Below are positions 4,205 to 54,200 of a stretch of DNA of 64,000 nucleotides, in pieces; the stretch's first letter is position 1, and each line of letters starts with the position of its first letter. Under the pieces are notes generated by a model, which saw only the letters and a list, made by a program, of their open reading frames with translations, ran no database searches and was not told the origin of the DNA. Made by a program: the position numbers and the translations under genes. The DNA comes from Candidatus Zapsychrus exili (GTDB taxonomy: Bacteria; Omnitrophota; Gorgyraeia; Zapsychrales; Zapsychraceae): contig JAVCCJ010000121.1 of the NCBI GenBank assembly GCA_030765585.1, forward strand, positions 7,233 to 71,232. The letters are read 5' to 3'.

Positions 4205-5164
4205 ATGCTGGATGTAATGTTTTATGAGGTTTTTAAAGAAGAGGAAATTGCTATAAAGAAATATTTGCCAAGCAATATTAAAGCCGATTTTACTTTTAAG
4301 ACAATACAGGCAAGTGGCGACGCTGATGTGTGTGCTAAGATAATTTCTATAAGAACGCAATCCATTGTTCCTTTGAATTGGGCAAATAGTTTAAAGGGAA
4401 TATTGTCGAGAAGCCAAGGCTATGATCACTTGCTTGATTATAAAAGCAAGATAGATAGCGATATTGTTTGTGGATATTTAGATAAGTATTGTTCTTTCAG
4501 TGTCGCCGAGCATGCGATAATTTTAATGATGATGTTGTTTAAGAACATAAAAAAGCAATTGAGTAATTTTGATACGTTTAAAAGAGATGACATAACAGGG
4601 GTTGAGCTAAGAAATAAAAACGTTCTTGTTGTTGGAGTAGGAAGCATTGGATCTGAAATTGCTTCAATAGCTCAGGCTTTAAAAATGAATGTGCAAGGAG
4701 TTGATATTGATAAAAAATTAGAGTGCATTAAATATGTTGCATTAGAAGATGGCATAGCTGATGCGGATATTGTTTTTTGTGCGCTTCCTTTGACTAAAGA
4801 AACTGATGGAATATTAAATTATCAGAGTTTAAACAAAGCTAAAGAAGGCCTTATCTTTGTTAATATAGCTCGAGGAGAAATATCTCCAATGAAAGATTTA
4901 AAAAAGTTGTTAGATGAAGGTATTCTAGGAGGACTAGGGCTTGATGTTTATGAGCAAGAACAAACATTAGCATCTTTTTTAAGGGACAATGGAGAGCAAA
5001 AAGATATTGTTGATATCGTCTTAGAACTTAAAGGAAAAGACAACTGCCTGTTTACTCCGCACAATGCTTTTAATACACAAGAAGCTTTGGATAAGAAGGC
5101 GAGTTTTAGTGCTCAGGCCATTGTTGAATTTTTAAAAGACGGAAAGTTTCCGCGTCAATTATGA
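4205..5164 (+). CDS. D-isomer-specific 2-hydroxyacid dehydrogenase family protein (NAD-binding)
   Basis: Rossmann motif VLVVGVGSIGSEIA. Family-typical ...LPLTKETDGILN..., GLGLDVYEQE, FTPHNAF. Confidence 0.75.
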   Translation: MLDVMFYEVFKEEEIAIKKYLPSNIKADFTFKTIQASGDADVCAKIISIRTQSIVPLNWANSLKGILSRSQGYDHLLDYKSKIDSDIVCGYLDKYCSFSVAEHAIILMMMLFKNIKKQLSNFDTFKRDDITGVELRNKNVLVVGVGSIGSEIASIAQALKMNVQGVDIDKKLECIKYVALEDGIADADIVFCALPLTKETDGILNYQSLNKAKEGLIFVNIARGEISPMKDLKKLLDEGILGGLGLDVYEQEQTLASFLRDNGEQKDIVDIVLELKGKDNCLFTPHNAFNTQEALDKKASFSAQAIVEFLKDGKFPRQL

Positions 5165-9200: not shown

Positions 9201-11087
9201 ATGAAAAAATACAGCATATCAAAAAAGAGCATACTTTCTATTATGTGCATGTCGTTATTATTAATGACGTGTATTGCCACATCTTTTGCTTTAGCTGAAG
9301 ATGCGGCCGAAACAAAAGAAACCATTGATACTCTGGGTATTGCCGAAATTAGCATGATAAAAGGAGAACTTGATACACTTAAAGTTTATTCTTTGACCAG
9401 AGTTTCTTTAACTGATCCGTCTGTAGCTGATATTGTTGATGCAAACGCTAACGAGATTTTACTTATCGCAAAAGAAGAGGGCCAAACAGCGCTTTTTATT
9501 TGGGATAAACATGGAAAAAGAACTCTTGCGGTAAATGTTTTTAATCAACATTTAGAAAGTATTAAAGGTAGACTTGAAGACTTGCTTGATTCTGCTGGTA
9601 TTTCTGGAATAGTGGTCGAAGTCAACAAAAAAGAAGGAAAGGTCATTGTTGTTGGAGATATAAACGAAGAGCAACAAGAACATTTTGATAAAATTATAGC
9701 ACCTTTTGACAGAGATCTTATTTTATTGACCAGAGAAGAAAAAGCCGAAGATCTTATTCAAATAGATTTGCAAATCACAGAGCTAATTACAACTTTATCT
9801 GAAACCATAGGTGTAGATTGGTCTGCAGGTGATGAAAATAGTGTTGTGTTAACATACGCAGAAAATATGCCTACTTTCAATCAAGGGGGAGTTCAGGATA
9901 TTGTAAAAGTAGGAGCTTTTAATAGAACCTCAGCTTTGCTTGCAACAGTAAATGCTCTTGTATCAGAAGGAAAAGCAAGAATACTTTCTCAACCAAAACT
10001 AGTTGTTGTTAGTGGAGAAGAAGCAAGTTTTTTAGTTGGAGGTGAGATACCAGTTAGGACAACAACTGTTAATGATGATGGTACTGCGGAAAATATAGAA
10101 TATAAAGAATATGGCATTGGTATGACAATTCAACCTACTATTAGAAAAGAGAAAATTGATATAATTCTTGATACAGAAATAAGTGATATAGACGGTTCTT
10201 CTCCTGCAGGAGCAGATGATGTTGCATTCTTAACTAGAGCAGCTCAAACACAACTTTATCTTGAAGACGGGCAAACGATTGTTATCGCTGGTTTGATTAA
10301 AAGTAATAAAAATGAAAGTAGAACTTCGGTTCCATTTTTTAGCAAAATTCCTGTTTTAGGGCTTTTGTTTAGAAGTAGATCTAATCCAGCGGCGAATCAA
10401 GATACAGAAATTGTTATATCTCTTACACCTCATATTTTAGTGGAAGAGAAGAGAAAAGAGGTTGTGGTAGATGAGATAAAAGAAATAGTTAGAAGAGAAG
10501 AAATTATTACTATAATTAATAATGTTTTAGAAGAAGAGATTGTGGAAATTGATGAAGTGGTTGAAGAGACAGAAGGAATGGAAAATGTAGCAGAGAATGC
10601 AGAAGCGGCAAATAAAGGTACTATTTATACAGAGGAAGCTACAGAATTAGAAGAAGTTGAGGCAATTATTGAGGAAGAAAAGGAAGCAGAAGAAGTTGAT
10701 TTGTTTTTTTTAGCAGACGATGATTCTGTTCCAATAGATGAAAAGCCTTATCAAGCGCCAGAAAATGATTATATTTTAGAAGGTATTCCTGAAGAGATGC
10801 AGAACTATGTAAAGGGTGTTCAGCAAGCAATTTTTGAGTCCATATCCTATCCTATCGAAGCAGAAAATTATGGCTGGGAAGGTATGGTTAAGTTAGGTAT
10901 GCTTATTTTAGACGACGGAACACTTGCTTTTGCTCTTGTTAAAGAATCTTCAGGATACGAAGTTTTTGATAACAACGCTTTAGAAACAGCTAAGAATTTA
11001 GCACCATATCCGGCATTTCCATCTGATACTGATCTTATGGAGTTAAGCGTAACAATACCTATCGTATATTCCTTAGATAGTAAATAG
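9201..11087 (+). CDS. cpaC: Tad/T2SS-family secretin (CpaC/RcpA-like) with an acidic linker and a C-terminal TonB_C-like domain
   Basis: Signal peptide. Secretin core ILSQPKLVVVSGEEASFLVGGEIPV...IVIAGLIKSNKNESRTSVPFFSKIPVLGLLFRS. Glu-rich linker. C-terminus ISYPIEAENYGWEGMVKLGMLILDDGTLAFALVKESSGYEVFDNNALETAKNLAPYPAFP...IPIVYSL matches the TonB C-terminal pattern. Confidence 0.8.
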   Translation: MKKYSISKKSILSIMCMSLLLMTCIATSFALAEDAAETKETIDTLGIAEISMIKGELDTLKVYSLTRVSLTDPSVADIVDANANEILLIAKEEGQTALFIWDKHGKRTLAVNVFNQHLESIKGRLEDLLDSAGISGIVVEVNKKEGKVIVVGDINEEQQEHFDKIIAPFDRDLILLTREEKAEDLIQIDLQITELITTLSETIGVDWSAGDENSVVLTYAENMPTFNQGGVQDIVKVGAFNRTSALLATVNALVSEGKARILSQPKLVVVSGEEASFLVGGEIPVRTTTVNDDGTAENIEYKEYGIGMTIQPTIRKEKIDIILDTEISDIDGSSPAGADDVAFLTRAAQTQLYLEDGQTIVIAGLIKSNKNESRTSVPFFSKIPVLGLLFRSRSNPAANQDTEIVISLTPHILVEEKRKEVVVDEIKEIVRREEIITIINNVLEEEIVEIDEVVEETEGMENVAENAEAANKGTIYTEEATELEEVEAIIEEEKEAEEVDLFFLADDDSVPIDEKPYQAPENDYILEGIPEEMQNYVKGVQQAIFESISYPIEAENYGWEGMVKLGMLILDDGTLAFALVKESSGYEVFDNNALETAKNLAPYPAFPSDTDLMELSVTIPIVYSLDSK

Positions 11088-11114: not shown

Positions 11115-13274
11115 ATGAGCTGTAAAACAATTACTATCTTTAGTAACAAAGGTGGCGTAGGAAAAACTTTTGTTACTATTAATTTAGCTACCGCACTTGC
11201 ATCCGCAGGTAAAAAGACACTTGTCATCGATTTAGATTTTCAAGCAGGCCAAGATATGGCAAGAATGCTTAATTTATCTCCTAGAGGGTCTGTTGCTGAC
11301 TCTTTGTCTAACATAGAAAGCGCAGAGAATCCTGATGTAATAAAAGAATACGTAGCACAACATAAGTCAGGCTTGCACTTTATTCCTGCCGTTAAGAATA
11401 CCAAACAAATAGGTCATGTTACCCCAGACAATATTAAGCTTTTTATGAAGAAAGTAGCTAAGGTATATGATTATATTTTAGTTGATGCCGGTAGATCATT
11501 TAATGAAACTCTTGTAACAGTATTTGATTATTCTAATCTTATATTGCTTGTTGCTACTCCAGATGTTTTGGCAGTTTATCAGGTAAAGTGGTGTTTAGAT
11601 ATTTTGCAAAATCTACAGTTTCCTGCAAATATGATAAAGCTTATATTAAATAGATCTGAGAGCAAAGGCTCTGTGGCGTGGCAAGAAATAAGGACTGCCT
11701 TGCCTTGTGAAATCTTTAGTCATATTCCTTCTGACGGCAAAATAGTTGGTACTGCGATGAATAGAGGTGTTCCATGTGTTTTAGATAGCCCTAAATCTAA
11801 GGTTGCGGAAGCGTTTGTTAAGATGACACATATGCTAAGTCGAGAAGATATTTTTGTTGATGTAGCTGATACTGATAAGATTCGATCAACAGAAGGATTT
11901 GTGAAACCTGGTCAATTTTGGGAGAAGTTTGGGATATTTAAACAAAGCGGGCAAACAGAAAATGTTCTCGGCACTGTAGAAGATGAATTTGCTAATTTAA
12001 AACAAAAAATACATGAAAAACTTATTGAAAGACTTAACTTAGAAGGCATTACTCTTGAGAATTTGAATGATCAGCAGACAATAGAAAAAGTTAAAAAGTC
12101 TTCAGAAGATATTGTAAGAGATTTGTTGGCAGAAGAAATGGGTGGTAATATTTCTTCTCATGAAGAGCGAGCCAGAATAATTAAAGATATTGTAAACGAG
12201 GCTCTTGGATTAGGTCCCTTGGAAGATCTTCTCGCTGATCCGGACGTAACTGACATTATGGTTAATAGTAAAAATGAAATTTATGCTGAAAAGAACGGAA
12301 AAATAATATTAACTAATAAAACTTTTGTGTCAGATTCAAAGATGAGGGCGATTATTGATAGAATTATTGCTCCTTTAGGAAGACGTATTGACGAATCAAC
12401 ACCTATGGTTGATGCGCGACTTCCGGATGGTTCAAGAATTAATGCTATTATCCCACCTTTAGCATTAAACGGACCAATGATTACTATTAGAAAATTTGGA
12501 CAAGAAAGACTTACTATCGCAGATTTGCTTACTATGCATAAAAGTATTACACCTGAGATATCGTCTTTTTTGCAGGCTGCTGTTGTTGCGCGTAAAAATA
12601 TTATTGTCTCCGGAGGAACAGGTGCTGGTAAAACAACACTTTTAAATGTACTTTCTGAGTTTATTCCCGACGGAGAGCGTATTATTACAATAGAAGATGC
12701 TGCTGAGCTTAGACTCAAGAAAACTCATTGTGGAAGGCTTGAATCTAGACCAGCAAACGTTGAAGGAAAAGGAAAAATAACGATAAGAGATTTATTTGTT
12801 AATTGTCTTCGTATGCGTCCAGATAGAATTGTTATTGGTGAGTGTCGTGGTGGAGAGGTATTAGATATGCTTCAGGCAATGAATACAGGACACGATGGAT
12901 CCCTTACAACAATTCATGCTAATTCTACGAGAGATGTTTTGACGCGTCTTCACTCTTTGATTTTATTAAGTGGTATTGAACTTCCAGTTCGTGCAATAAA
13001 CGAGATGGTAGCCTCTGCAATAGATTTGATTGTCCACATAAGCCGTTATTCTGATGGTACAAGAAAAGTAACAGGAGTGTCTGAGGTAATTGGGATAGAT
13101 GATGAATTCCAAATAATTTTAAATGATGTTTTTATCTTTAATCAGCAAGGTATTGATGAGAATGGCAATATTATTGGAAATTATGAAGCCACTGGATATG
13201 TTCCTGAATGTTACGAAGATTTTTCAACGCGCGGTATTAAGATTGATAAAGCAATATTTAATAAACCAAAATAA
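11115..13274 (+). CDS. cpaF: Fusion of a CpaE/TadZ-like ParA/MinD ATPase with a CpaF/TadA secretion ATPase
   Basis: N-terminal deviant Walker A SNKGGVGKTFVTINLA...VIDLDFQ. C-terminal TadA core GGTGAGKTTLLNVL, ITIEDAAEL, RPDRIVIGECRGGE, NTGHDGSLTTIHAN. Confidence 0.8.
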   Translation: MSCKTITIFSNKGGVGKTFVTINLATALASAGKKTLVIDLDFQAGQDMARMLNLSPRGSVADSLSNIESAENPDVIKEYVAQHKSGLHFIPAVKNTKQIGHVTPDNIKLFMKKVAKVYDYILVDAGRSFNETLVTVFDYSNLILLVATPDVLAVYQVKWCLDILQNLQFPANMIKLILNRSESKGSVAWQEIRTALPCEIFSHIPSDGKIVGTAMNRGVPCVLDSPKSKVAEAFVKMTHMLSREDIFVDVADTDKIRSTEGFVKPGQFWEKFGIFKQSGQTENVLGTVEDEFANLKQKIHEKLIERLNLEGITLENLNDQQTIEKVKKSSEDIVRDLLAEEMGGNISSHEERARIIKDIVNEALGLGPLEDLLADPDVTDIMVNSKNEIYAEKNGKIILTNKTFVSDSKMRAIIDRIIAPLGRRIDESTPMVDARLPDGSRINAIIPPLALNGPMITIRKFGQERLTIADLLTMHKSITPEISSFLQAAVVARKNIIVSGGTGAGKTTLLNVLSEFIPDGERIITIEDAAELRLKKTHCGRLESRPANVEGKGKITIRDLFVNCLRMRPDRIVIGECRGGEVLDMLQAMNTGHDGSLTTIHANSTRDVLTRLHSLILLSGIELPVRAINEMVASAIDLIVHISRYSDGTRKVTGVSEVIGIDDEFQIILNDVFIFNQQGIDENGNIIGNYEATGYVPECYEDFSTRGIKIDKAIFNKPK

Positions 13275-13305: not shown

Positions 13306-13647
13306 ATGCAAATTATAAATATAACAAATAATACCACAATTGCAACTGATGTTGTCGTTGCCGATACTTTTAAAACTCGAGCAATAGGCCTTTTAAATAG
13401 AGAGGGCATTAATGATGGCGAGGCTCTTGTGATCACAAGATGCCAGTCAATACATATGTTTTTTATGAAATTTGCTATTGATGTAATTTTTGCAGATAAA
13501 AATAATCGTGTTGTTGGGCTAGTTAAAACGATAAAACCTTTTTGTTTGAGCCCTCTATTCTTTAAAGCAAATTATGCTGTTGAGCTTTCATCTGGCACAA
13601 TACTTGCCACAAATACCTCTATTGGAGATCAAATAGAGCTAGCGTAA
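13306..13647 (+). CDS. DUF192 (COG1430) family protein
   Basis: ...GLLNREGINDGEALVITRCQSIHMFFMKFAIDVIFADKNNRVVG... fits the DUF192 pattern (GLM.R..L....GMLF.F.....HM..M.FPLDVIF). Confidence 0.5.
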   Translation: MQIINITNNTTIATDVVVADTFKTRAIGLLNREGINDGEALVITRCQSIHMFFMKFAIDVIFADKNNRVVGLVKTIKPFCLSPLFFKANYAVELSSGTILATNTSIGDQIELA

Positions 13648-13922
13648 CCAAAGCCCCTACCTTTTTATTGACCACAAACATACCTATGTTATACTACAAG
13701 TAAGAAATGTCCAATCTGAATGAGCGCATAATTTACGCGACTAAAAGAAGCGCCAATTGCAGTGTGAATTTCTACTTGTTGGTAGACAGGCATCCCTGCG
13801 AAGGTACGTAAAGTCCCGTTGGGACCACGTCCCTTTACGGGCAGGGATCTAAATGGACTCCCGCCTACGCGGGAATGACATTTGATACATTATAAAATTC
13901 AAACATAAGCGAAAGTTCATAT

Positions 13923-15905
13923 ATGGGAGTAATTTACAAGTTTAAACAAGAAGTAATTGATTTTATATTAAGTCAAAAGAAAGAAAACTCTGTGCTTAGT
14001 TGTCGTAAGCTTGCGGATATTGTGTCAAAGAAGTTTAGCTTGGTTGTATCAAAGTCTTCTATAAATACTATTCTTAAAAAAGCTCAATTAAGTAGTTCTG
14101 TTGGAAGAAGAGCTACAAAAAGTGAAAAAGGATTTAAAATTCCTGAAGCAAAGAAAATGCAAATTCAGGAGAATTTAAGGCAGGTTGGTCTTGATTTGTC
14201 TGGAAAAGATCAAAAAGATGAAAAAATGGTACAGTCTTCAGCTTTAGAATCTGATCAAGTTAAAATATTAGATAGCGAGCGTTTGGCAGCTAGTATTGAA
14301 TCTTTAATACAGGAGCCATCTGAAGAATCGCAAGAGTCTGTTATTTCTCATCAGCCTGAACCCGAGTTGGATAATGATTTAGAAGCAAAAGAAGAATTTA
14401 TTAGTCTTCAAAAAGATATTTTTGAGCAAGATATTGAGAAAGTAGAGTCACATCAGGAGAAGGAAGTAATAGAAGAAATAGATGAAGATGTTGATATTGG
14501 AGATGTTGAAAGAAAATATAATGATTTTCTTGATTATGTGGGTCATCTGCGTTCGCAAAAGAAATCATTGTCTTTCTTGAGTCGTTTTGAAGGAATGGGT
14601 GCGATTTTCTTGAAAATATTGCAATGGGAATTTGATAGTGAGGCATTTTTCAGAGATTTTCTTAAAAATAAGATAAATGGAGTGCTTTTAGACGGATTTG
14701 AAAAAGTATGCGATGCTTTTCTTTGTTTTAAACTTTTAGGGATAGATGGGCTAGAGCATATTGATAAGTATAAACATTATGCTTTGCCAGTTTTAGGTGA
14801 TTATGGAGAAGAATTCTCAAGGTTGATAGAAAATAAAGAAGATCTTGAAAATGTTTTGGTCAATTTTTCTGATGATAAATTTTTGCAAAATATAAAAGGA
14901 GAATATGTAAGAGAAAAAGAACAGCTGTTTTTAAAAGTTCGAGGATTTAAAATAATTTTTGAAGATGCAGAATCTTTGTTTATTGATGCTGGGCTTAAAT
15001 CGTTTTATAAAAATATACCACCAGAGAGACTGGCATGTTCTTTTAAAAAATCTTTTAGTTGTCTTTCAAGAAGTTTTGTAAGTAATAATTATCCAGCGGT
15101 GTTTTATCATATTGATGACGAGACACAAGAATTAGTTAGCCTAGTGAACATTGTAGATATTTTAGAGAATTTAAGCTTAAAAGTAATAAAAGAAATAGAG
15201 ATGTTGGGTTTAGATGGCGAGAATTTATCAACGTTTTCAATAATACCTAATATTAAGCGCAAGATAATTTTTGGGCTAAACGCTTCTTGTCAGGCAGTAA
15301 AGATACAGTTGCAGCAGCTGGATTCTTCCTTAACAAAACCTTTTTATCATGAACAAGCAGACAAAATTTATTATTACTGTGAAGATACTATTATTTCTTC
15401 TGAAGATAAAAACGGCAAGCAAACAGATTTAAAATTGATAGCACTTTGTTCTGATAAGACTAAAGATTTTGAACTTGTTATTGTTACAAATATGGTTTCA
15501 TCTGTGGCTTTTGATATAATTTCTGCTTATTTTGACAGAATTCCATATTTGCCAAGTTCTTTTTCTGTTTGTGATGCAATAGATTGTGATAATGCTTTTG
15601 ACAATGTAGACGTTTTAAGTGTTTTGGATGTCATAAATGACCTTAAAAGTGTGTTTGATAATTGTTTCCAGCGTTATCTCTTTGGAGCTGGGATATCTTC
15701 TGATAATGTAAGTGACTTTAAGGCAAAGCTTTATGAACTTCCAGGCTATTTGCAAAAGGATAATGAGCTTCTAAAGGTTATTTTAGATGCATCTGAAGAC
15801 TTTCCTTATTTTAAGGAATTGCAGAATATTGTTAAGGTTGTAAATAGTCAAAATATTTTAGATAAAGAAAATCGTAAGATTTTCATTGAAATTGCTCCTT
15901 CTTGA
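13923..15905 (+). CDS. Hypothetical 660-aa protein between the tad machinery and the pilin array; N-terminal HTH-like segment, acidic linker, large uncharacterized C-terminal domain
   Basis: Long ORF with codon usage like its neighbours. N-terminus SCRKLADIVSKKFSLVVSKSSINTILKK is HTH-like. No recognizable catalytic motifs. Confidence 0.5.
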   Translation: MGVIYKFKQEVIDFILSQKKENSVLSCRKLADIVSKKFSLVVSKSSINTILKKAQLSSSVGRRATKSEKGFKIPEAKKMQIQENLRQVGLDLSGKDQKDEKMVQSSALESDQVKILDSERLAASIESLIQEPSEESQESVISHQPEPELDNDLEAKEEFISLQKDIFEQDIEKVESHQEKEVIEEIDEDVDIGDVERKYNDFLDYVGHLRSQKKSLSFLSRFEGMGAIFLKILQWEFDSEAFFRDFLKNKINGVLLDGFEKVCDAFLCFKLLGIDGLEHIDKYKHYALPVLGDYGEEFSRLIENKEDLENVLVNFSDDKFLQNIKGEYVREKEQLFLKVRGFKIIFEDAESLFIDAGLKSFYKNIPPERLACSFKKSFSCLSRSFVSNNYPAVFYHIDDETQELVSLVNIVDILENLSLKVIKEIEMLGLDGENLSTFSIIPNIKRKIIFGLNASCQAVKIQLQQLDSSLTKPFYHEQADKIYYYCEDTIISSEDKNGKQTDLKLIALCSDKTKDFELVIVTNMVSSVAFDIISAYFDRIPYLPSSFSVCDAIDCDNAFDNVDVLSVLDVINDLKSVFDNCFQRYLFGAGISSDNVSDFKAKLYELPGYLQKDNELLKVILDASEDFPYFKELQNIVKVVNSQNILDKENRKIFIEIAPS

Positions 15906-24990: not shown

Positions 24991-25848
24991 ATGTTAGTTT
25001 TTGTATTATTTTTAATATTTTGTACTGCATGTATTTTTGGATATGCCATTGTACCGCATCTCTACAAACACGCCACTGTAATACAAGAGAAAAGAGAACA
25101 AAAGTATTCAATCCAGATGGAGCAGGTGCTTACTCGTGCAGAAGCAAGAAAGATGAGTCGGCTTTTTGTTTTTGCTCCACTTGTTTTATCTGCAGGTCTT
25201 TACTTTTTAGTACCTGCTGAGATAAGGATTTTTGCTGTTGCATTTGGCGTTGTTATTGGGCTTTTGATTCCTGGCATGTATGTTAAATCGATGGCTGATA
25301 GGGCAAGGCGTAAATTTCAATTTCAGCTTGTAGACGGGTTGATGATTATGTCTAGTTCTTTTAGAGGTGGTTTAAGTTTGATGCAGGCAATGGAGGCTGT
25401 TGTTGAGGAAATGCCTGATCCAATTAATAGAGAATTCGGAACAGTTTTAGGTGAAAACAAAATGGGTGTTTCTTTAGACGATGCTTTAAATCATCTTGAA
25501 AGGCGCATGCCTTCTGTCGCGCTTCGCCAGATGATCACTGCCGTTTTGCTTGCTCGTGAAACAGGTGGTAATTTGCCTGTTATTTTTACCCGTATTGCAA
25601 ATAATATTCGCGAAAACAGAAAGATTCAACAAAATATAGATACGTTGACCATTCAGGGTAAAATTCAGGGTGTAGTAATGACGCTTTTGCCTTTTGCTTT
25701 TGCTAGTATTGTTTTCTCGGCGAATAAACAGATATTTTTAAATATGTTTGAGTCTGAGTTAGGACGAATGATGTTAATTTATGCTGCTATCTCAAATATT
25801 ATTGGCGCATTTATGATTTGGAAAATTAGTAGTTTTAAGGACTTTTAA
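24991..25848 (+). CDS. tadB: Tad pilus inner-membrane platform protein TadB (T2SS-F family)
   Basis: Polytopic. GspF-like block FRGGLSLMQAMEAVVEEMPDPINREF...ALRQMITAVLLARETGGNLPVIF. Confidence 0.8.
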   Translation: MLVFVLFLIFCTACIFGYAIVPHLYKHATVIQEKREQKYSIQMEQVLTRAEARKMSRLFVFAPLVLSAGLYFLVPAEIRIFAVAFGVVIGLLIPGMYVKSMADRARRKFQFQLVDGLMIMSSSFRGGLSLMQAMEAVVEEMPDPINREFGTVLGENKMGVSLDDALNHLERRMPSVALRQMITAVLLARETGGNLPVIFTRIANNIRENRKIQQNIDTLTIQGKIQGVVMTLLPFAFASIVFSANKQIFLNMFESELGRMMLIYAAISNIIGAFMIWKISSFKDF

Positions 25849-25860
25849 TAAGAGGAAAAT

Positions 25861-26754
25861 ATGTTAGAACTAATTTTAGCCCTAGTGTTTACATTTGCTT
25901 ACCTTTCAGGGTTTTTCTTTATTTTGGCAGTTATCCCTATTCAATGGGATTATCGTCCGACTTTAAATGTTGCTGGTATTGGCGATGAGAAATCTCTTAG
26001 GCAAAAAAAGAAAAAGACACCATTTCATTTCTTAAGAAGTGTGGCTTTAATAAATAAGCCAATATGTCTTGGTGCATTAAGGGCAAGAATTGAAAAAGAT
26101 TTAGCAATAGCACACGTTAACATGACAGCAGAGGAGTTTCTTTTTATTAAGGAAGTTGGAATCTTTTTAATGCTTTTTCTTACATATCCAGTAGTTGCTT
26201 CTGATTTTGTTATGTTCTGGGGGATTATGTGTGTTGCGTTAGGATACATGATTCCTGAATTTTGGCTTAAAGGTAAAATTAAAACTTCTAAAGCCACAAT
26301 AATTAAAGAACTTCCTGATGCAATTGATTTGCTCGGACTTTGCGTTAATGCTGGACTTGATTTTATGCTTGCATTAAGATGGGTTGTTGAAAAGTCTCCG
26401 CCATCAGTTATGACCGACGAGCTAAACACAATATTGCAAGAAATTAGCGTTGGTAAGACGCGTAGGGATGCTATTAGAGATTTGTCTTACCGTTACCAAT
26501 TGCCTGATTTGTCTACTTTTGCTAGAACTTTAATCCAAGCAGATAAAATGGGAACTTCGGTTAGTGAAGCGCTGAATATGCTCTCAGAAGATATGCGTAT
26601 TGCGCGCTACAGACGAGGTGAACAGCTAGCATTAAAAGCCCCATTAAAACTTCTTGTGCCGCTTCTTTTCTTTATCTTTCCGGTTGTAGGTATTCTTGTT
26701 GCTGGACCGATATTGCTCGATTTTATCGAGAACAATCCTTTCGCTGCGCATTAA
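25861..26754 (+). CDS. tadC: Tad pilus inner-membrane platform protein TadC (T2SS-F family)
   Basis: ELPDAIDLLGLCVNAGLDFMLAL...TFARTLIQADKMGTSVSEAL is the GspF-domain signature. Confidence 0.8.
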   Translation: MLELILALVFTFAYLSGFFFILAVIPIQWDYRPTLNVAGIGDEKSLRQKKKKTPFHFLRSVALINKPICLGALRARIEKDLAIAHVNMTAEEFLFIKEVGIFLMLFLTYPVVASDFVMFWGIMCVALGYMIPEFWLKGKIKTSKATIIKELPDAIDLLGLCVNAGLDFMLALRWVVEKSPPSVMTDELNTILQEISVGKTRRDAIRDLSYRYQLPDLSTFARTLIQADKMGTSVSEALNMLSEDMRIARYRRGEQLALKAPLKLLVPLLFFIFPVVGILVAGPILLDFIENNPFAAH

Positions 26755-26859: not shown

Positions 26860-27135
26860 ACATTTTCTGCATATCGGTAGGCAGTATTTCGTGCGGACTG
26901 AGTGAACCCAAGGCTCTAGCGCAACGTTTTAATAAGAAATAGTTAGCAAAAATATTACAGCTTTAAAAAAGTCTGTCATTCCTGCCTTCGCAGGAATGAC
27001 AGCACGGATAGGAATGACAGCAAGTGTTGCACTAGCATCTTGAATCTGCGCTGTCTTTATTTCCTTTAAGGTTAGCCCTTACGCAAATTCTTTACTTGAT
27101 ACCTGACACTTGCTGCCTATCGGTAGGTAGGTACA
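26860..27135. repeat. ~37-bp imperfect direct repeats (ttgatacaYKgacaYttKctgcMtatcggtaggYagta) flanking a 190-bp segment that contains the perfect hairpin tgtcattcctgccttcgcaggaatgaca (26974..27001)
   Basis: Copies at 26860-26897 and 27092-27130. Related ctgcctaccggtag / cggtaggtaggcac motifs recur at 29056 and 29296. Confidence 0.5.
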
Positions 27136-27140
27136 TTCTT

Positions 27141-28010
27141 TTAGAATATTTTCGCAAATCCCTCGTCGATGAGTTCTTGGTTTAAATAGTATCCTTCTGT
27201 AAATATTTTATCGCGATTAGCTTCTGTTTTTGAATAAAAGATATGTGCTACATATCGGCCGTAAATATCTTGCTTGTTTGTTTTTATCATTACAAATGTA
27301 AGGCCACCGAGCAATGCATCTTCTGTGTATTTGCGCGCAGCTTCGCCCTCCTCGGTTCCCATCTCAGGGCAATCAATTGATGCTAGACGTATTCTTTGCT
27401 CGCGAGAAGTACAGAACCCTAAGTCAATGCGCGCAAGAATAGTATCGCCGTCAATTACACGCAAAACCTCTGCCTTGTAGACAAAACTTGCTTTAGTTGG
27501 ACGTTTTAAATCTGTTTTCTTTGTGATTATTTTTTCTTCGGCAGATGTCTCTTTAAAACTTTTTTCTTCGTAATATTTGTCTTTTATCTTTTGTGCAAGT
27601 TTGCGCTTACCCCATTTTTCTTGATTAGCTTCTTTAAAATAGAAATCACGCTTAGCATCATTTTCAATAGCGAGCAATTGTTTGTAATGATTCCAGCTTA
27701 AGCCGGAATCTTGAGGCATTCCATTTGGCCACAATTGAAAGAATTTTACCATTCTAGTAAGTAAACTGTATTCTATTTTGAGATCTTCTGCTATTTGTTT
27801 TAAGATGTTTTGTTTTTTTTCTAATCCTTGTTCTTGAGCAATTCTTTGGCCAAATTCCCAATATCCTTCTGCAATAATATTAGAGATGCTCTCTTTAACT
27901 TTATCTTTTGTATTATTAAGAATTGTTTTAAGGTCAGCAATAAGTTTTTCATATCCAATAATATTTGCTTTAGTATCTTTATCTGCCACTTTATTTCTCC
28001 TAATTTGCAT
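27141..28010 (-). CDS. Nuclease: YhcG/DUF1016 N-terminal domain fused to a staphylococcal-nuclease (SNase/thermonuclease)-like domain
   Basis: N-terminus IAEGYWEFGQRIAQEQ...LKQIAEDLKIEYSLLTRMVKFFQLWP (DUF1016_N pattern). C-terminus VIDGDTILARIDLGF...IRLASIDCPE...GRYVAHIF (SNase catalytic pattern). Confidence 0.7.
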   Translation of the reverse strand: MQIRRNKVADKDTKANIIGYEKLIADLKTILNNTKDKVKESISNIIAEGYWEFGQRIAQEQGLEKKQNILKQIAEDLKIEYSLLTRMVKFFQLWPNGMPQDSGLSWNHYKQLLAIENDAKRDFYFKEANQEKWGKRKLAQKIKDKYYEEKSFKETSAEEKIITKKTDLKRPTKASFVYKAEVLRVIDGDTILARIDLGFCTSREQRIRLASIDCPEMGTEEGEAARKYTEDALLGGLTFVMIKTNKQDIYGRYVAHIFYSKTEANRDKIFTEGYYLNQELIDEGFAKIF

Positions 28011-28247
28011 TTATTAGAGTTTTTAACAAAGAATCGATTGCCCCAATTGTTCCGCGGGGCAACTGGGGCAACTATTATTGTACTAAAAATGTGATAGCGC
28101 TGCAAGTAGAAATTTTAAAAAATGTTAGGGAAATAGGTGAGGGGCAGGTGAGGGTCAGACCCTTGTATTTTTGTCCCTTAGGTTTTCAGTGTTTTTAAGA
28201 GACAAGGTAGCGGCTACCTTTGGCGTGTTGGATGTTTTGTGCTAATG

Positions 28248-28730
28248 CTGGATATTAGAAAAACAAAGAGATGTTGTCATTGCGGGTCCTTTAGGGTGAA
28301 GCAATCTTAATGATATTTTATGGGATTCTACGGGGTCAGACCCCTTTTCTGTCCCCGCACTTGTTCCCCTGTTTCTTGTTTGCTCCTTGTAACGACATGT
28401 GTATTTGTCGTAAGATCGCAATGCGTAAGGTAAGGGTGAGAGCAAAGACTAAGGGGTAATGAGTATGTGTGAGGTTAATTTTGTTGGCTATGTAGCTGTT
28501 GCGTAGTTTTCTTAGGATAAAACCTTTTTGTTGACAGTGCTTTAGGTCTTTGCTTGAATAGTTTTTTTGCATTGATGTTTTATCAAAGCTTGATTTAGAG
28601 TCAATGGAAAAAGAAAGAGGTACTAGACCCTAGATTTTGGATACTTGATACTAGATGCTTGATGCTAGAAAAACAAAAAGATGTTGTCATTGCGAGCCCT
28701 TTAGGGTGAAGTAATTTCAATAAGATTAGA
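28248..28730. repeat. Two ~73-bp direct repeats, ~85% identical (agaaaaacaaaRagatgttgtcattgcgRGYcctttagggtgaagYaat...), 410 bp apart
   Basis: Copies at 28248-28320 and 28658-28730. Region GC is higher than the surrounding genes and has no long ORF. Confidence 0.55.
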
Positions 28731-29055
28731 TTATTTGTCATTAGGTTAGTAGGCCGCATCAAGTGTTGGATGACAAAAGAGGGTGGATAGGCTAGGGTTT
28801 ATCCCTATGTTTCTAAATGCTGCCATTATTAATGTCCAATCTGATTATGCTTTGTAACAAGAAGGTAGGACCATCCTGAGCAAAGCTAAGGATGACTTTT
28901 TTGTCATTTTTGCCTAGGGTCTGACCCTCGTACTTATAAATCAGATTGCTGGGCCGCTCGCCTCTGCGAAGCTTTACGGTTTCGCTACAGCGAAGCAGGG
29001 CAAATTCACATACATGACCTATTGAAATACTTGATGTAATCATAGAAGCATCAAG

Positions 29056-29314
29056 CGCAAATTTCTGCCTACCGGTAGTGTACTACTTCACAATTTTGGT
29101 AACACTTTAAAATTATTTAATAATTTTTTTTCCTTCTCCCCTTTGGGGAGAAGGCCTGTCTTTCTTTAGGAAGACAGAGATGAGGGGTAAGAATAAAAGC
29201 CCCTCACCTTAACCCTCTCCCCAAAGGGGAGAGGGAAAATTTCTTTTTGAAATCAATTATTTCTTCTACTAATTTGTTACCAAAATAGTGAAGAATTACA
29301 CGGTAGGTAGGCAC
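29056..29314. mobile_element. MITE-like foldback element (~260 bp) with ~40-bp imperfect terminal inverted repeats and two internal perfect hairpins
   Basis: Left end ctgcctaccggtagtgtactacttcacaattttggtaaca. Right end tgttaccaaaatagtgaagaattacacggtaggtaggcac (reverse-complement match ~80%). Internal hairpins ccttctcccctttggggagaagg and ccctctccccaaaggggagaggg. Central palindrome ctgtctttctttaggaagacag. Confidence 0.45.
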
Positions 29315-29476
29315 ACAGGCTAAGTTAATGTTCGCCTTGTCAATAAGTTGGCTTCATAAGTTAGGTGCTCGTTTAATGTCCAATCTGAGGGTTTAAAGCA
29401 AGTTTGAGTAATTTGTTGGAATGCTAGCTAAAGGGTTTGTTTTAAATGAGTTAAGATAAGAATTTTAAGCAAGATA

Positions 29477-29680
29477 AATGTCCAATCTGACTCTGTTTTG
29501 TGGCAAGAAAACAGAGTCATTTTGAGCGAAGCGAAGGATCTCTAAGGTGATTGTCATCTACGCAGGTATTTTTGTCTATTGGGCAGGTAGTGTGGCAAAG
29601 GGACAGGCGAGTAGAGGGATAAATCTCCGACTGTCCCTCTATGTTGCGGGACAGACGAGGGTCTGACCCTCCTGTTTTAG
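29477..29680. repeat. One member of a dispersed repeat family beginning AATGTCCAATCTGA; other starts at 13706, 28841, 29376
   Basis: Identical 14-mer at four places. The 28841 and 29477 copies share ~60 further bp (..ttgt..caagaa...gagcRaagcKaaggat..). All lie in intergenic space. Confidence 0.5.
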
Positions 29681-30254
29681 GCTGGAGCCTGACTCTTTTT
29701 GGGTTTTTGAGCAGAAAAATAGTAGTTTTTGAGGTAAAATGGACAGTTTTTGACAAGAAATAGGTTGTTTTTGATAAAAATGGATGTCATTGGATGAAAA
29801 TAAGTGATTTGGGCTAATATTTGGAGCTCAATAGCCTAAAAACTAGAAAAAATGGGAAATTTGTCAAGTGCTTGCCAAAAAAATATTTTTTTTAATGCTT
29901 TTGGACCCCCAAAAGGGGCTGAGTTGATGATCATTTTTTTGCTAGAATTGTGGCAATTTCTTTATTAGAACTATTATATTTCTCGTCGAGATTCTCATAA
30001 ATTGCTTAAAATTTTTTGCTTGACAAAATATTTATAATAAATATAATACTTAGTATTAATAATATAAAAAAAGCGCTTTCTTAAAACTTGCAAGAAAGGT
30101 CCTTTTATTGTCTCGACGAGGAAACGTATAAAAATTCAAGGAAATTAATAAAACATCAATTGTGTATTGTAACTCCTTTGTTTTCAACTAGTTAGAATAT
30201 AAAAAAAATATCTTCTGACCTTGTTGCAATACAATAATATGCTATACTTTCAAT

Positions 30255-33200
30255 ATGAAATCAGCCGCGGAACAAAATAGAGAGCCAGAAGATGATAGAA
30301 AAGCCGACAGCTCAATTGGCAATATGAGCGAGAATACGGCTTTTACTCATCAACATTCTTATGTTCCTACCAATAGGACTTTCTTAAACTCTGAAGATTG
30401 TTCTGCTGATGCTCAAAATATTTCAAATACCCAACCACAAGAAGAACCAATTCCACATAAATCACGCTTTAAATCTTGGATTAAGACAGTTGCATTAATA
30501 ATAATATTGGTTTTTGTTCCTGAGCAAATTAGTTGGGCATTTAGCTATAATCCTCTTGTACTTTGGAAAGATAAGGCTACTGTTGCTTCACAGTATCTTG
30601 GTGATGGAAATACTATTGCAGCAGAGAACCAAATGACAGAAGAGCAAATAGTCTCTTTACGTGTGTCAGAAAGTGTTAGCCATTTTTTAAAACAACTTCA
30701 AAACAAAAATGCTCAACAAATACAATTACAACTTCCAAATCCACACAAATCAAAGCTAGTTAAGGATAATCAATATAATATATTAATTAATACTGATTTG
30801 GCTTTTAATGAGTCAAATATTGCTGAAATTGCAACTTGGTTAAGAGAACCTGCAATTCACCCATTAAATTGTGGCGTTTATGCTCTTAATGATATCCTTG
30901 CTAATTATGATGTTAAATTAAGTCTAGAAGAAATCTCAGTTATGTCTCTTTTAGTTGATTTAATCAACGATATCGTTCGCCCTGGCGAACCAAAGCTTAA
31001 AACATCTCTTTACGCGATAAACAAGATTACAGAAGCATACGGAATTAACTTAAAAGCAGCAAAGCTTGCACCAGCTGATATTTTTGATTTAGAGCCACCT
31101 TTTATCGCTAATTTTGATGATGAGCATTTTGTGACTGTTACAAAAGTAGACGATACAAGCGTTTATTACAATGATATAGGTCGCGCGTCATCAAGTTCAA
31201 GATTAGATTTCTTAGACCAAGTAACAGGTTTTGTTTTAGCTCCTGAGCTAGAAGCTCAAGATGATGTAAAATTTGAGTATGTCCCTGATGCAATGCAGGC
31301 ATTTATTTGGGGTTCAAAATGGCATGGTAATCTTGATAATCTTCCAGGATTGTACAGCTGGGGAGATGTTGCTATTGGAGCTGCTTTTCAAGTTGTTGGT
31401 CTTTTTACCGGTGGTCTTGCTAGTAGCGTATTAAGTTTAGGTGCAGGTAGTTTTCTAGGTTCTCTTACAACAGCTATTGCTTTAAGTGAGTGTTATGATG
31501 CAGAAACTGGTGCGGCAGATCAGGGTTGTTTAGATACAATGTTTGTTTTAAATATTGTAGGAACTTCAGCAATATCAGCCGGCAGTGGCGCATTAAATGC
31601 TGATAGCTTTGATTTAGGCGCTTTCGCAGGAGACTTTGCTAAAGGCGCTGTTGTTGGGCTTGGACAAGGGTTGATTATGCTTTATGTAGGTAAATTGCTT
31701 AATGATTTACTTGAAGATTGGGATGCGCCTGATGCTCTAAAACAAGCAATTATTGGCGCGGTTTCATCTGTTGTAGCAACAACTGCAATGGGCTTAGTTG
31801 TAGATGGCCTAGACGCTGCTCTTAAAGAAATGGGTGTCGGAGAAGGCGCTAAAGTTGATTTGTCTTTAAAGAGCGTATATGCCGGAGACACACAGGTAAA
31901 GGTAGAGCCCGAATGGGCAGTTTGGAAAGCAACGGCTATGGGTAACGTTTTATCCGGCTTAAACAAGGTTGTAACATTTATAGGAAAATATACTGGAATT
32001 TCATGGGCGTTAAATCAACTTAATAAAGGCTGGAACAAGCTAGTAAAGGGCATGATAGGCTCAAATTCAGGAGCTGCAAAAACTTTAACTGCTACAGGAA
32101 AAGCTTTTAACGGCATAAAAAAGGGAGTTAATTATGCGCTAAACGGAAAGTTTAGTCCAGTAACTTATGTAATCAAAGCTCTTGCGGTTATTCCAAGAAC
32201 TGTTAGAAATCTTATGTCTGAAGGTAAAAAGGTTTGGGGAGTAAAGCATCTAGTTTTTGCATTAGAACAACATAATTTTTTAAGACAAATGACAGTGTTG
32301 GCAGTTAGATACATTTTATCAGAAGGTAAAATTCTTGGAATTGATGATGGCAATAAAGAAAATAATGGAGATGATGGAGAAGACCGCGGAATAGCATTTG
32401 ATTCATTCCTTTCTCAAGCAATAGGCATGGGCGTTGGTATGTTTTATGATCATGTTTCTATTGGATTAGATAATCGTGATAATTTAACTAAAAGAACGGA
32501 AAATGAAATTGCACAAAAGAAAGCAGAGGCAGAAGGGTTAGATAAAAACGATCCAGAATATGGTGATTTTATACAGAACAATATTGTCTCAATGACAGGT
32601 ATGTCTTTAGAGGATATTTTCGCTAAACGAGCAGAGTTTGGTTTAAGCGAAAACAGTGATTTTGCTCAATACCAAGGAAAAAGAACTTCTGCTTTTATAG
32701 CAATACTTGGAAAGTCGGTAGCCTCAGTATTATTAGCTAAACATTATGATAAAAAGGAATGTGCAAGAGTAGATTGTAATGAAACTGAAAGACTTGGAGA
32801 AGACCCGAATAGAGATCGCATAGGCTTGCTTAAGTTCAGGGCAACGCAGTTTCTTATAGGCGGACTTATTGAGGGCGGAATTGCTATTTTAACTGAAAGT
32901 AATAGAAGGCCAGATGGTGCTGAGCTTACTCAAACAGATAAAAAAGTAGAGCTTGATAAAAAGATAATTAATAAATTAGCTAATAAAGATGCAGATAAAC
33001 TCGAGAATGCTTTAAATACAAGCATGATGTTAGTAAATGAAAAAGGAGAATTGATAGATAATCTTAATGCTACAGAGAAAACATCTAATGAAATGCTTCT
33101 AGCAGCAAAGAAAAAATATGAACAAGCTTATAGTGAAGGCGGCGGAGCAAATGGAGAAGGCATTGAGAAAGTTTTAGCAGCAGCAGGATTGTCAAAGAAA

Positions 33201-51200: not shown

Positions 51201-54200
51201 GCTTCTAGACAAAGCTGGGAAGCCGCAGTTAGAGAATGGAATGATTTACTTGAGCTGGCTAAAACAAAGGGTGGTTCAGCTGAACTTCTTGCGCGTGTTG
51301 AAGAACAAATTGATCTTATGAGGGATCGTCAAACTAATGAGCCTGGTGAATATTTAAATGTAGTTGCTAATGGCAAGGTGTTGAATCAATTTGCTGATGT
51401 TTTAAAAGATGCAAATAAAGAGCAGAACAAAGAAGTTCGTCTAAGAAAATTAGAAGCAGGTCATAAAGGTATATTAATGGCCGCTAAGTATCTTGGTGAA
51501 GGAATTATACCAACACGTGTTACAGCATTCTTCAAAGCAGATAATATTAAGTCAGTTGCATCAAAGACAGATAAAAGTAAAGATATGACTTATGTTGAAT
51601 TTGTTAAAGGACTTACATCCGAAGAAAAGAATAAGTTTAATTTATCTATGTATGGTTTTGTTGTTGAATTAAAAGGTGAATATACTCTTGCTCGTCGTGG
51701 ACATCAATTAATATCCATGTTGGATGCTTTTGAGAATTTAAGCCAACAAGATATGGATAAACTTGGAGCGACAGTTGGAAGCCATACTCCATTTACAATC
51801 GCAGTTCAATTGGTTCAAGCAGATATAGTAGATATAAAAGAAGCTAAACAGTTAGCATCAATGGTTAATTTCTGGTTAGAGAATGCTGGTCAAACAGAGC
51901 ATATAGTTTCTTTAAGTGAAGAACAACAATCTAATTTCTTAAGCAAACTTAAAAAATTGACATTGCTAATATCTGATAAAACTTACACATTGCTTGCTTC
52001 TATTGGAGAAGAAATTGGAATAATTGATAATGTTGATATGCTTACTCAGATAAAGTCAAGATCTGATGCAATTACGCAGGCATTAGAAGGGGTAAAAGAT
52101 TTAGAAGCGCAAAAAGCAAAAGCAGGATTATTAGGAATTAGATTTAATGGAAAATTAAAAACTGCTGTTAAGACATTAGTTGAGCTGGTTAATCCTACAA
52201 TAGCGAAGATGGCATCTCTTCAAAATGAAATTGCATCTGATAAATTAGATATAGGCCCAATTGAATTTGCCGCTATTCTTCTAAATAGTGACGAGTTAAG
52301 AAACATTGAAGATATTAGTCGTGCAGAGAAGACATTAATATATATAGGAGAGACAATAGGCTATAAGCAATTAGATAAAAAACAAATAAATTTTGTTGCT
52401 TCTTTATTAGAAGAGTCGCTAGTATTACCTGCAGTTCTTTTAGTTGAAAGTGAAAGTATATCTGATGCTCAAAGAGAGCAACATATTAGAGTAGCTGCTA
52501 ATAAGATTGATCAAAACGCAAAGGTTAAGAAGCAAGACCTTCAAATGCTATTCTATCAAATGTTATCTAATCCTCATAAATTTGGTTTAACAGCATCAGC
52601 TGCAAAGAAAAAAGTAAGAAAGTTCAATTGGAAGCTAGATAAAGCAGATACATTTAAGAAGATAAGAACTACTTTAGGAAATGAACTTGCATCTAGATTA
52701 AATCCAAAATTAGGCTTCTTGGATAAGTTTAGTGTTTCTGATAATGAAGAGTTTAAGCTTGTTTCAGGTCGCATAGATTGGACAGATGAGCAAGCCGAGC
52801 AAGAATATAATAAATTAGCTGATAAAGAAAAAGAAATACAAGAAAAGACAGAAGAGCTTGTTCAGAAATTAAAAGAAAAACAAGAAGAGACGAAAGGCAA
52901 TGTTCAAGAATCAGTCAAAGAGGTTAAGAAAGCAAGCTTCTTAAACAGATTTAAGCCAACAATTGTTTTTGAAGGCAACAATATGGCAGAAAAGGTGCTT
53001 AAGGCAGGAATTAAAATAGGTTCTGTTACTTTAGGTTGGATGTTAGTGCCTTCGGTGTTGATTGCATCTCTTGTGTTTGGCACATCAGGTCTTGGGATTA
53101 TTGGAATGGTATTGGTTAGTGCCACTATTCATGAAATAGGTCATATTGTTGCAGCTAGAATATTAGGAGGAAGCCAAACTTATCAAGGAATGGGCGTATA
53201 TGGTCCAATAGCACAGGCTACGCTTAATACGAGAGGACTTTCTAAAAATGCTATAAGAATTATTGCAGCTATTGGTCCTATAACAAATATATTGGTTGGT
53301 ACTGTGGCCTTAGCTTTTGGAGTTGATCCATTTACTGCATATCAAGGAATAGAATTCTGGGGCGTTCCTGTTAATTTAGTTACTATAAACCTTGTTTTCT
53401 TAGCTGCGGTAAATCTTCTACCAATACCTGCGTTTGATGGTCTTACAGTTATAACAGGTAAAAACACTAAGACATCTATGGCTTCAGGGTCTGGAAAAGC
53501 TTTCTATTCAAGTATTCCACTATATGAATTTGTGTTATATGTTGCTTCTGTTCTGTCATTGCGAGGAGTAAAGCGACGCGGCAATCTAGAAGAAGAGATT
53601 GCTTTGCAAAAACCGCTCGCAATGACCGATAATGAGAAACATACTCAACAGTCAGCTATATTTGAGTCACAAGACAAGATTGAGGCAATTAATTTGAACA
53701 TTGAGCTTGAAAAGGCTGTAATGCCTGAAATTCCAGCTATGCCAGATAGAAGTATGCCGTTTGATCCATTAGGTATACCAGTAGCTCCGATGATTCCTCT
53801 TGGAGCACCAGCTTTAATGCTGTTAGGGTCTGTTTCAGGCAGTGGTCCAGGTGGAAAAGCACCTGTTAGTATGGTAGAACAACAAAGAGAATTTGGTCAA
53901 AATGAAGCAGATATTAAAGTAGCACAAGCTCAGACAGGTAGCGAGGTAGGGTTCTTATTAGCGTTTGCTCTCGATCTTAAGAGTCGAATGAATTTTAGTA
54001 GTACCGGTCTGAGTCCAAATGCGATAAGCGCTGCCATCCTTTTCCGCAAAGGATCAGGCAGAGCAAATGTAGTAGCGCGGATAATAGTAAATGTAGTACA
54101 TGTTGTAGCAAATGCAGTAAACGTAGTAAGTAGCAATGGTTCTAAGCCGTTGATATCTAGTGACTTCGGTCATAAAGGTAAAAATAACGGAGAGCCTGGT

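Follow-up and report, generated by a model that had tools for sequence, protein, structure and literature searches.

This study concerns a 14-mer, AATGTCCAATCTGA, and the hairpin-rich segment that follows it (positions 13706–13905) in a stretch of DNA from Candidatus Zapsychrus exili (Omnitrophota). The whole stretch, 64,000 nt long, is referred to as the window. Omnitrophota are uncultivated, ultra-small, probably predatory or parasitic bacteria. The window contains a tad pilus locus and, separated from its TadB/TadC genes by a 3.5-kb spacer, a giant gene; Omnitrophota tad pili and giant genes are the main suspected host-interaction tools (PMC10066038; bioRxiv 10.64898/2026.06.07.730766). The focal copy of the 14-mer precedes the gene of a 660-aa protein with a helix-turn-helix (HTH). 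In the initial annotation the segment was regarded as a repeat copy followed by a highly structured region, possibly a small structured RNA or a regulatory element shared by the tad locus and the island upstream of the giant gene. The genes, the promoter and the motif copies are as follows.

9201–11087: secretin gene (tad locus)
11115–13274: gene for a CpaF/T2SSE ATPase with a fused TadZ-like ParA domain (tad locus)
13306–13647: DUF192 gene
13668–13695, plus strand: predicted sigma-70-type promoter, TTGACC-16 nt-TATACT with a TG extended -10, 10/12 consensus matches
13706–13719, plus strand: operator-like motif AATGTCCAATCTGA, starting 10 nt past the -10 box and equal to the phylum-wide consensus
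13923–15905, plus strand: gene of the 660-aa HTH protein; pilin-sized open reading frames (ORFs) come next in the locus
24991–26754: two T2SSF (TadB/TadC) genes
28831–28844, plus strand: motif copy in the tadC-to-giant-gene spacer, then a hairpin and SRM-like GAGCAAAGCTAAGGAT
29375–29388, plus strand: motif copy in the same spacer
29477–29490, plus strand: motif copy in the same spacer, then a hairpin and an SRM-like head GTCATTTTGAGCGAAGCGAAGGATC at 29516
30255–60032, plus strand: giant gene (9925 aa) with an N-terminal peptidase C39 domain, a conserved neighbor of tadB/tadC

The tad ATPase (719 aa) combines ParA/MinD-like (TadZ/CpaE-type) and CpaF/T2SSE domains, and the fusion is kept in the examined relatives L001, L003 and L005.

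The motif at the HTH-gene promoter

All four copies of the 14-mer in the window are exact and lie on the plus strand; there are no copies with one or two mismatches and no inverted partner. In the shuffle control, which allowed up to two mismatches, four matches were reached in one of 100 shuffles (mean 0.8). The initial annotation had the copies at 13706 and 29477 in place, but was off by 10 nt for the copy at 28831 (given as 28841) and by 1 nt for that at 29375 (given as 29376). Its term ‘repeat copy’ suits the copies at 28831 and 29477, which are alike over 66 nt (76% identity, repeat family D8), but not the focal copy or the copy at 29375, which have no similarity to the others beyond the 14-mer. 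The focal copy overlaps the transcription start predicted for the HTH gene (about 13702–13705), and its dyad symmetry is weak. The 5′ untranslated region (5′ UTR) of this gene is about 220 nt long, the distance from motif to ATG being 217 nt, and the start codon has no clear Shine-Dalgarno sequence.

We compared the window with 80 orthologous loci obtained in one scan of species-representative genomes, nearly all labeled Omnitrophota (Candidatus Zapsychrus exili itself is not among them). The homologues of the 660-aa protein have diverged to about 25% identity, yet their genes stand in the same synteny: secretin, CpaF fusion, DUF192, HTH gene. The orthologous promoters share a TTGAC(A/C)-16/17-TATAnT architecture. 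A plus-strand site scoring at least 14 bits is present no more than 130 nt upstream of the HTH ATG in 67 of the 80 loci, compared with 0.04 loci in shuffled sequences. The position weight matrix, built from 72 HTH-promoter sites, has the consensus AATGTCCA(A)(T)(C)(T)(G)(G/A), to which the window 14-mer is identical. The AAT preceding GTCCA is essentially invariant, although the search did not impose it. In the window, the four exact copies are the sole sites scoring 9 bits or more (25.3 bits for the copy at 13706, 25.4 bits for that at 29375). With just four copies in one genome window, it might be argued that they are chance matches or a recent local duplication without function. This is refuted by the retention of the motif at orthologous positions in spite of the low identity of the HTH proteins, and we leave the idea practically no weight. 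The category of DNA-uptake sequences was rejected as well, there being only four clustered copies in 64 kb.

The placement of the motif relative to the promoter shows at what level it is constrained. Across the loci it usually starts 2–15 nt past the -10 box of a strong TTGACA-17-TATAnT promoter. Most commonly it lies 21 nt before the ATG (24 loci), running into a GGAGG ribosome-binding site. In 17 loci the motif starts within 6 nt of the -10 box, so that part of the site is untranscribed, and in at least 10 loci a second direct copy lies ~20 nt upstream of the -35 box, in untranscribed DNA. Two or more sites within 200 nt occur in 32 of 69 loci. Perfect 19-bp palindromes, AATGTCCA-N3-TGGACATT, are formed at four sites, and six or more of the eight dyad positions are matched by 16 of 69 sites. 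Orthologous HTH coding sequences (131 kb) contain another 35 copies, on both strands and in two frames (NVQS and LSNLS), often paired 38 or 69 nt apart; almost none are found in the ~340 kb of flanking DNA. The intragenic copies lie ~+700 to +1100 nt into the HTH orthologues (L012, L014, L017, L019, L024, L025, L026 and others). Taken together, the untranscribed copies, both orientations, two frames and palindromes indicate that the constraint acts at the level of DNA, as is typical of operators bound by proteins, and argue against an RNA element or a peptide motif. As in autoregulatory operators, the conserved site covers the promoter or transcription start of the putative regulator's own gene across orthologues, and the dyad symmetry or repeated half-sites are consistent with binding of an oligomer.

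Alternatively, the motif might act in RNA, as a conserved element at the mRNA 5′ end concerned with stability, with an RNA-binding protein or with a small-RNA seed, the spacer copies being the 5′ ends of sibling small RNAs. Its position at or just past the predicted transcription start would fit such a role, and so would the hairpin that follows each spacer copy in the window (after 28831, the hairpin is followed by a T run). However, the copies upstream of the -35 box, the partly untranscribed sites, and the occurrence of both orientations and palindromes in giant-gene spacers do not fit, nor does any promoter-like site precede a spacer copy in the window. We therefore consider action at the RNA level to be very improbable. 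A phase-variable (invertible) promoter was also rejected: the promoter-flanking copies are direct repeats, and there is no recombinase domain.

Some of the orthologous loci have an additional minus-strand gene for a ~76-aa protein between the DUF192 and HTH genes (3521–3751 in L001, 3559–3792 in L005). The L005 protein has faint Zn-ribbon Pfam matches, and the window has no counterpart gene.

The candidate binder of the motif is the 660-aa protein, the N-terminus of which is a transposase-type three-helix HTH. Its sequence is 100% identical to that of a hypothetical protein encoded on a 111.5-kb contig of a Candidatus Zapsychrus exili MAG. Members of its family are 500–800 aa long and have a large C-terminal domain without a Pfam family; a PDB sequence search with the family profile returned nothing significant. 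The type of HTH brings up the possibility that the 14-mer is a relic transposon end, with the 660-aa protein being a domesticated or active Tn5/IS4-like transposase and the copies marking element ends. Several observations speak against this. No DDE Pfam family matches the protein at E up to 1, and D355 is the sole nearly invariant acidic residue in the family. All fold-comparison scores of the structure model (mean pLDDT 66.8) are below significance. The gene is fixed in its synteny across the phylum, and the sites are direct repeats that flank a promoter and bound no mobile unit. Thus, the RNase H-like fold, the D, D, E triad and the Pfam DDE match that define a Tn5/IS4-like DDE transposase were not found. 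In the lack of a conserved triad and of mobility, the protein also differs from the transposases whose DNA-binding domains its HTH recalls (Tc3/IS630 and Tn5). Overall, we consider a transposon origin of the sites unlikely. With equally little confidence, one may imagine a domesticated Tn5/IS4-like transposase whose HTH now acts on end-derived sites, AATGTCCAATCTG, and bridges them to switch the whole Omnitrophota attachment and predation module on or off as a unit. The bridged sites would then be those at its own promoter, in its own gene and in the tadC-to-giant-gene spacer, and the module would comprise the tad pilus and the giant C39 surface protein.

Motif clusters upstream of the giant gene

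To the window we added seven further giant-gene loci, reached via homologues of the giant protein N-terminus. In five of them the order is tadB, tadC, a 0.4–1.5 kb spacer and then the C39 gene, and in all seven motif clusters are present upstream of the C39 gene. The clusters take different forms: a 27-bp palindrome, AATGTCCAATCTAACAGATTGGACATT, located 16 nt past the tadC stop (L088), tandem copies (L089), three or more copies in mixed orientation (L086 and L092) and four copies of the variant AATTTCCAWTCTG (L090, GCA_028871075.1). At 4580–4670 in L090 the spacer sites all read AATTTCCA(A/T)TCTG, with the core G changed to T, a natural variant of the motif.

Since the matrix was built from HTH-promoter sites only, the giant-gene spacers are independent test data. 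Within 9.7 kb of these spacers (window included) there are 18 sites of at least 12 bits, versus 0.16 in shuffles, and the rest of the same loci (113 kb) contains three. This enrichment across loci identifies the window copies at 28831, 29375 and 29477 as the local version of a conserved site cluster. The motif therefore occupies two fixed positions in the tad/giant-gene module, one at the HTH promoter (67/80 loci) and the other in the giant-gene spacer (7/7 further loci), and the earlier suggestion of a regulatory element common to the tad locus and the giant-gene island is borne out. HTH-gene relics were not detected in the giant-gene spacer by tblastn.

The giant gene also appears to have a promoter of its own. 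A promoter-like element with an extended -10, TATAATAATG(C/T)TATACTT, is present upstream of the C39 gene in all eight loci: at 30230–30249 in the window and 67–659 nt upstream of the called C39 start in L086–L092. In the window 6 nt separate the end of the -10 box from the ATG at 30255, pointing to either a leaderless mRNA or a mis-placed start. Because of this conserved promoter-like element, the sites in the spacer may exert their effect from afar or have a different target. A separate perfect TTGACA-16-TATAAT is found at 30020–30047.

The rest of the window spacer is a NIME/BIME-like mosaic of repeats. One of them is a 73-nt direct repeat (28245–28317 and 28655–28727, 85% identity), each unit of which contains the hairpin GTTGTCATTGCG(A/G)G...GGGTGAAG(C/T)AAT. 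Between the motif copies at 28831 and 29375 lies a 248-nt element (29066–29313) resembling a miniature inverted-repeat transposable element (MITE); its 44-nt terminal inverted repeats (80% complementary) surround a further inverted pair of 27 nt (93%). The stretch from tadC to the giant gene also has an inserted minus-strand gene with DUF1016_N and staphylococcal-nuclease domains (27141–28010). In L092 the corresponding place is taken by a minus-strand gene that looks unrelated, and the other loci showing the tadC-to-giant-gene spacer have none.

Hairpin repeats between the motif and the start codon

The long leader that separates the focal motif from the HTH start codon is made up of the following parts.

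13720–13789, plus strand: leader stretch with small hairpins GAGCGC...GCGCC and TCTACTTGTTGGTAGA (from the fold)
13790–13851, plus strand: NTS/SRM-type hairpin GCATCCCTGC-GAAG-GCAGGGATCTA, with the degenerate head GGCAT for GTCAT and the loop split by a nested palindrome
13804–13840 (boundaries ±1 nt): 37-nt palindrome GTACGTAAAGTCCCGTTGGGACCACGTCCCTTTACGG, nested in the GAAG loop (from sequence and fold)
13853–13880, minus strand: SRM/NTS hairpin TGTCATTCCCGCGTAGGCGGGAGTCCAT, convergent with the plus-strand hairpin

The hairpins named in the initial annotation are all present: atccctgc...gcagggat at 13792–13848, cgtaaag...ctttacg at 13807–13839 and cccgc-ctac-gcggg at 13860–13873. The segment is indeed highly structured. 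The predicted fold of 13700–13910 has an energy of -67.8 kcal/mol (z = -4.3), and none of 200 shuffles is as stable. The minus strand gives an equally good fold (-66.4 kcal/mol, z = -4.1), and both this equality and the low energy are due to perfect DNA palindromes.

The two NTS/SRM-type hairpins belong to a dispersed repeat class. NTS/dRS3/SRM repeats, known from Neisseria, Wolbachia, Rickettsia and many other bacteria, are targets of the GIY-YIG single-strand nucleases SsnA/Ssn and are concentrated in intergenic regions close to genes of surface or host-interaction proteins (PMC11893778). The published SRM pattern, HGTCWYN(0-2)YYVSBRHN(0-5)WNVSBRGN(0-2)RNCYNB (PMC11893778), has one match in the window, the minus-strand hairpin at 13853–13880, compared with 0.04 expected. 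This hairpin has the semi-palindromic core with an oriented GTCAT head, and its GC-rich stem of 8 bp encloses a loop of 4 nt; it shares 24 of 28 positions with the Neisseria NTS consensus CGTCATTCCCGCGMAVGCGGGAATCYRG (PMC11893778), differing in one weakened stem pair (GGGAGT). Copies of it, 96–97% identical, are present in three unrelated metagenome contigs (L205, L198 and L103).

The plus-strand hairpin is a degenerate member, which departs from the Neisseria repeats in its mutated head and its nested palindrome. It reads ATCCCTGC-GAAG-[37 nt]-GCAGGGAT; with 13804–13840 taken out, 13790–13851 reads CATCCCTGCGAAGGCAGGGATC, the common GTCATCCCTGCGAAGGCAGGGATC variant. At least 120 metagenome stretches contain this uninterrupted form; their flanks are unrelated, and the copies often stand in pairs that converge, a few tens of nucleotides apart. 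Among the matches listed, at least 18 contain exact GTCATCCCTGCGAAGGCAGGGATC and at least 114 the ATTCCTGC variant, the chance expectation estimated from the pattern information content being below one. With a relaxed GTCAT-head pattern the window has nine heads versus 0.2 expected, including the focal one, the palindrome near tadC, and three each in the spacer and inside the giant ORF. The window hairpins resemble the published cases in being clustered between genes, next to those for surface or host-interaction proteins. However, the published criterion is genome-wide enrichment, whereas the single strict SRM in 64 kb refers to the window only.

Other repeats of this kind are scattered through the window. 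A perfect dRS3/NTS-like palindrome, CTGTCATTCCTGC-CTTC-GCAGGAATGACAG, lies at 26975–27000, ~220 nt past the tadC stop; it has an SRM head on both strands and is a sister of the 13790–13851 hairpin without its 37 nt. Inside the 9925-aa ORF, SRM-like palindromic repeats (CTGTCATTGCGAGGAGTAAAGCGACGCGGCAATC ... CTCGCAATGACCG, 53555–53630) are in-frame and leave the ORF unbroken, recalling Rickettsia palindromic elements (RPE) in coding sequences; another is found at 48713 on the minus strand. The nested and convergent arrangement in a few permissive intergenic regions resembles that of REP/BIME in E. coli, NIME in Neisseria and RPE in Rickettsia. In sequence, however, the repeats here are unrelated to REP, and a RAYT/TnpA-REP gene was not observed. 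Other Omnitrophota too have SRM-type or other GC-rich palindromes in the DUF192-to-HTH spacer (L074 2750–2840 and the upstream regions of L055/L065 and L076), making this spacer a recurrent landing place for hairpin repeats. A MITE was considered for the segment 13706–13905 and rejected: only a 7-nt complement (AAATGTC/GACATTT) closes it, and neither the window nor 85 Omnitrophota loci contain a homologous copy.

Could 13700–13905 nevertheless function as a structured RNA, be it as a 5′ UTR that controls the HTH gene in cis (a riboswitch, a thermosensor or a leader bound by a protein) or as a separate small RNA transcribed from the 13668–13695 promoter? The strong promoter directly upstream, the very stable fold and the start codon without a clear Shine-Dalgarno sequence are in its favor, and a hairpin between motif and ATG is also present in L001, L007, L034, L081 and L084. 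However, there is no homology between the hairpins of these lineages and those of the window, none of the orthologous loci contains a counterpart of the 13720–13905 leader, and in most relatives the motif stands only 21 nt from the ATG. The equally good fold of the minus strand is what DNA palindromes would produce, and the hairpins themselves are members of a repeat family dispersed in unrelated genomes. Database searches point the same way. At the gathering threshold Rfam has no match in the whole window, and at E up to 10 nothing relevant was found over 13600–13960 except RF02748 (FtrB, Francisella small RNA B) on the opposite strand. This match scores 28.9 bits (E = 0.0072 in the 361-nt search) against a gathering score of 66. 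The minus strand of 13785–13902 does align to the full FtrB model, and both have the hairpin GUCAUUCCCGCGUAGGCGGGA, but the similarity is confined to the NTS-like hairpin, the sub-threshold match is caused by the SRM hairpin at 13853–13880, and no promoter is predicted upstream on the minus strand. ARAGORN detected neither tRNA nor tmRNA, and no terminator-like site precedes the HTH ATG. The small structured RNA of the initial annotation is thus not upheld, and we find a functional RNA here rather improbable. As read from the sequence, the hairpin structure comes from DNA palindromy and not from an evolved RNA fold.

A putative operator and a presumably invaded leader

We favor a reading with two independent layers, to which we assign a probability of about 0.6: a phylum-wide DNA operator and invading NTS/SRM hairpin repeats. 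Judging from the sequence evidence, AATGTCCAATCTGA is probably a protein operator, most plausibly for the adjacent HTH protein, and would belong to a small Omnitrophota regulon that ties the tad locus to the adjacent giant C39 gene. By binding the 13706 site at its own promoter, the HTH protein would regulate its own gene, either by repression or by activation. Binding of the same protein at 28831, 29375 and 29477 would couple transcription of the giant gene, or of the spacer, to tad expression, possibly by bridging of distant sites. NTS/SRM hairpins, one per strand and convergent, would in this lineage have invaded the DNA that separates the operator from the start codon. The hairpin repeats would be passengers in the 5′ UTR, which may incidentally affect mRNA stability or translation.

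A number of points weigh against this two-layer reading. Adjacency and promoter overlap are what suggest the HTH protein as the binder, and another regulator could bind instead. The intragenic copies seen in orthologues are absent from the HTH gene of the window. Between the three spacer copies and the giant-gene ATG, 780–1420 nt downstream of them, there are promoter-like sites, so that the copies may have a target other than the giant gene. The structured 5′ UTR may have acquired a secondary regulatory role. The 37-nt palindrome and 13720–13789 are presumed insertions, for which no other copy was found: sequence like 13720–13789 has no counterpart in the window or the fetched loci, 13720–13905 has no second copy in the window or 85 Omnitrophota loci, and neither the palindrome nor 13706–13790 recurs in about 120 metagenome loci among the matches listed. 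A search of 5.8 billion proteins gave 26% identity for the closest relative of the HTH protein, too distant for covariation analysis or a comparison with an ‘empty’ site. Finally, in contrast to the known NTS systems, where the repeats often flank the nuclease gene, no ssnA-like GIY-YIG gene was seen in the window by a six-frame regular-expression search, a crude test.

The arrangement that we favor resembles that of autoregulated HTH repressors (lac O1/O2/O3, gal OE/OI, lambda OR/OL): one site over the regulator's transcription start, a second next to the -35 box, more of them within the coding region or at a distance of kilobases, and partial dyad symmetry. It differs in that the HTH family here is uncharacterized and a predicted binder only, conservation is far stronger in the left half-site than in the right, and direct repeats are frequent among the copies. 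The two papers on Omnitrophota tad loci and giant genes (PMC10066038; bioRxiv 10.64898/2026.06.07.730766) mention neither a regulator nor a regulatory motif, and for this reason we take the putative operator and regulon to be a hitherto undescribed example of a well-known type of system. The hairpins, selfish-looking in character, are ordinary representatives of a repeat class characterized recently.

For studies of this group, the resemblance of NTS/SRM-type palindromes in AT-rich genomes to structured RNAs calls for caution. The position weight matrix provides a simple probe for co-regulated genes in complete genomes. For the biology of Omnitrophota, a site of 14–16 bp conserved across the phylum would be a concrete regulatory link between the HTH gene of the tad locus and the giant gene.
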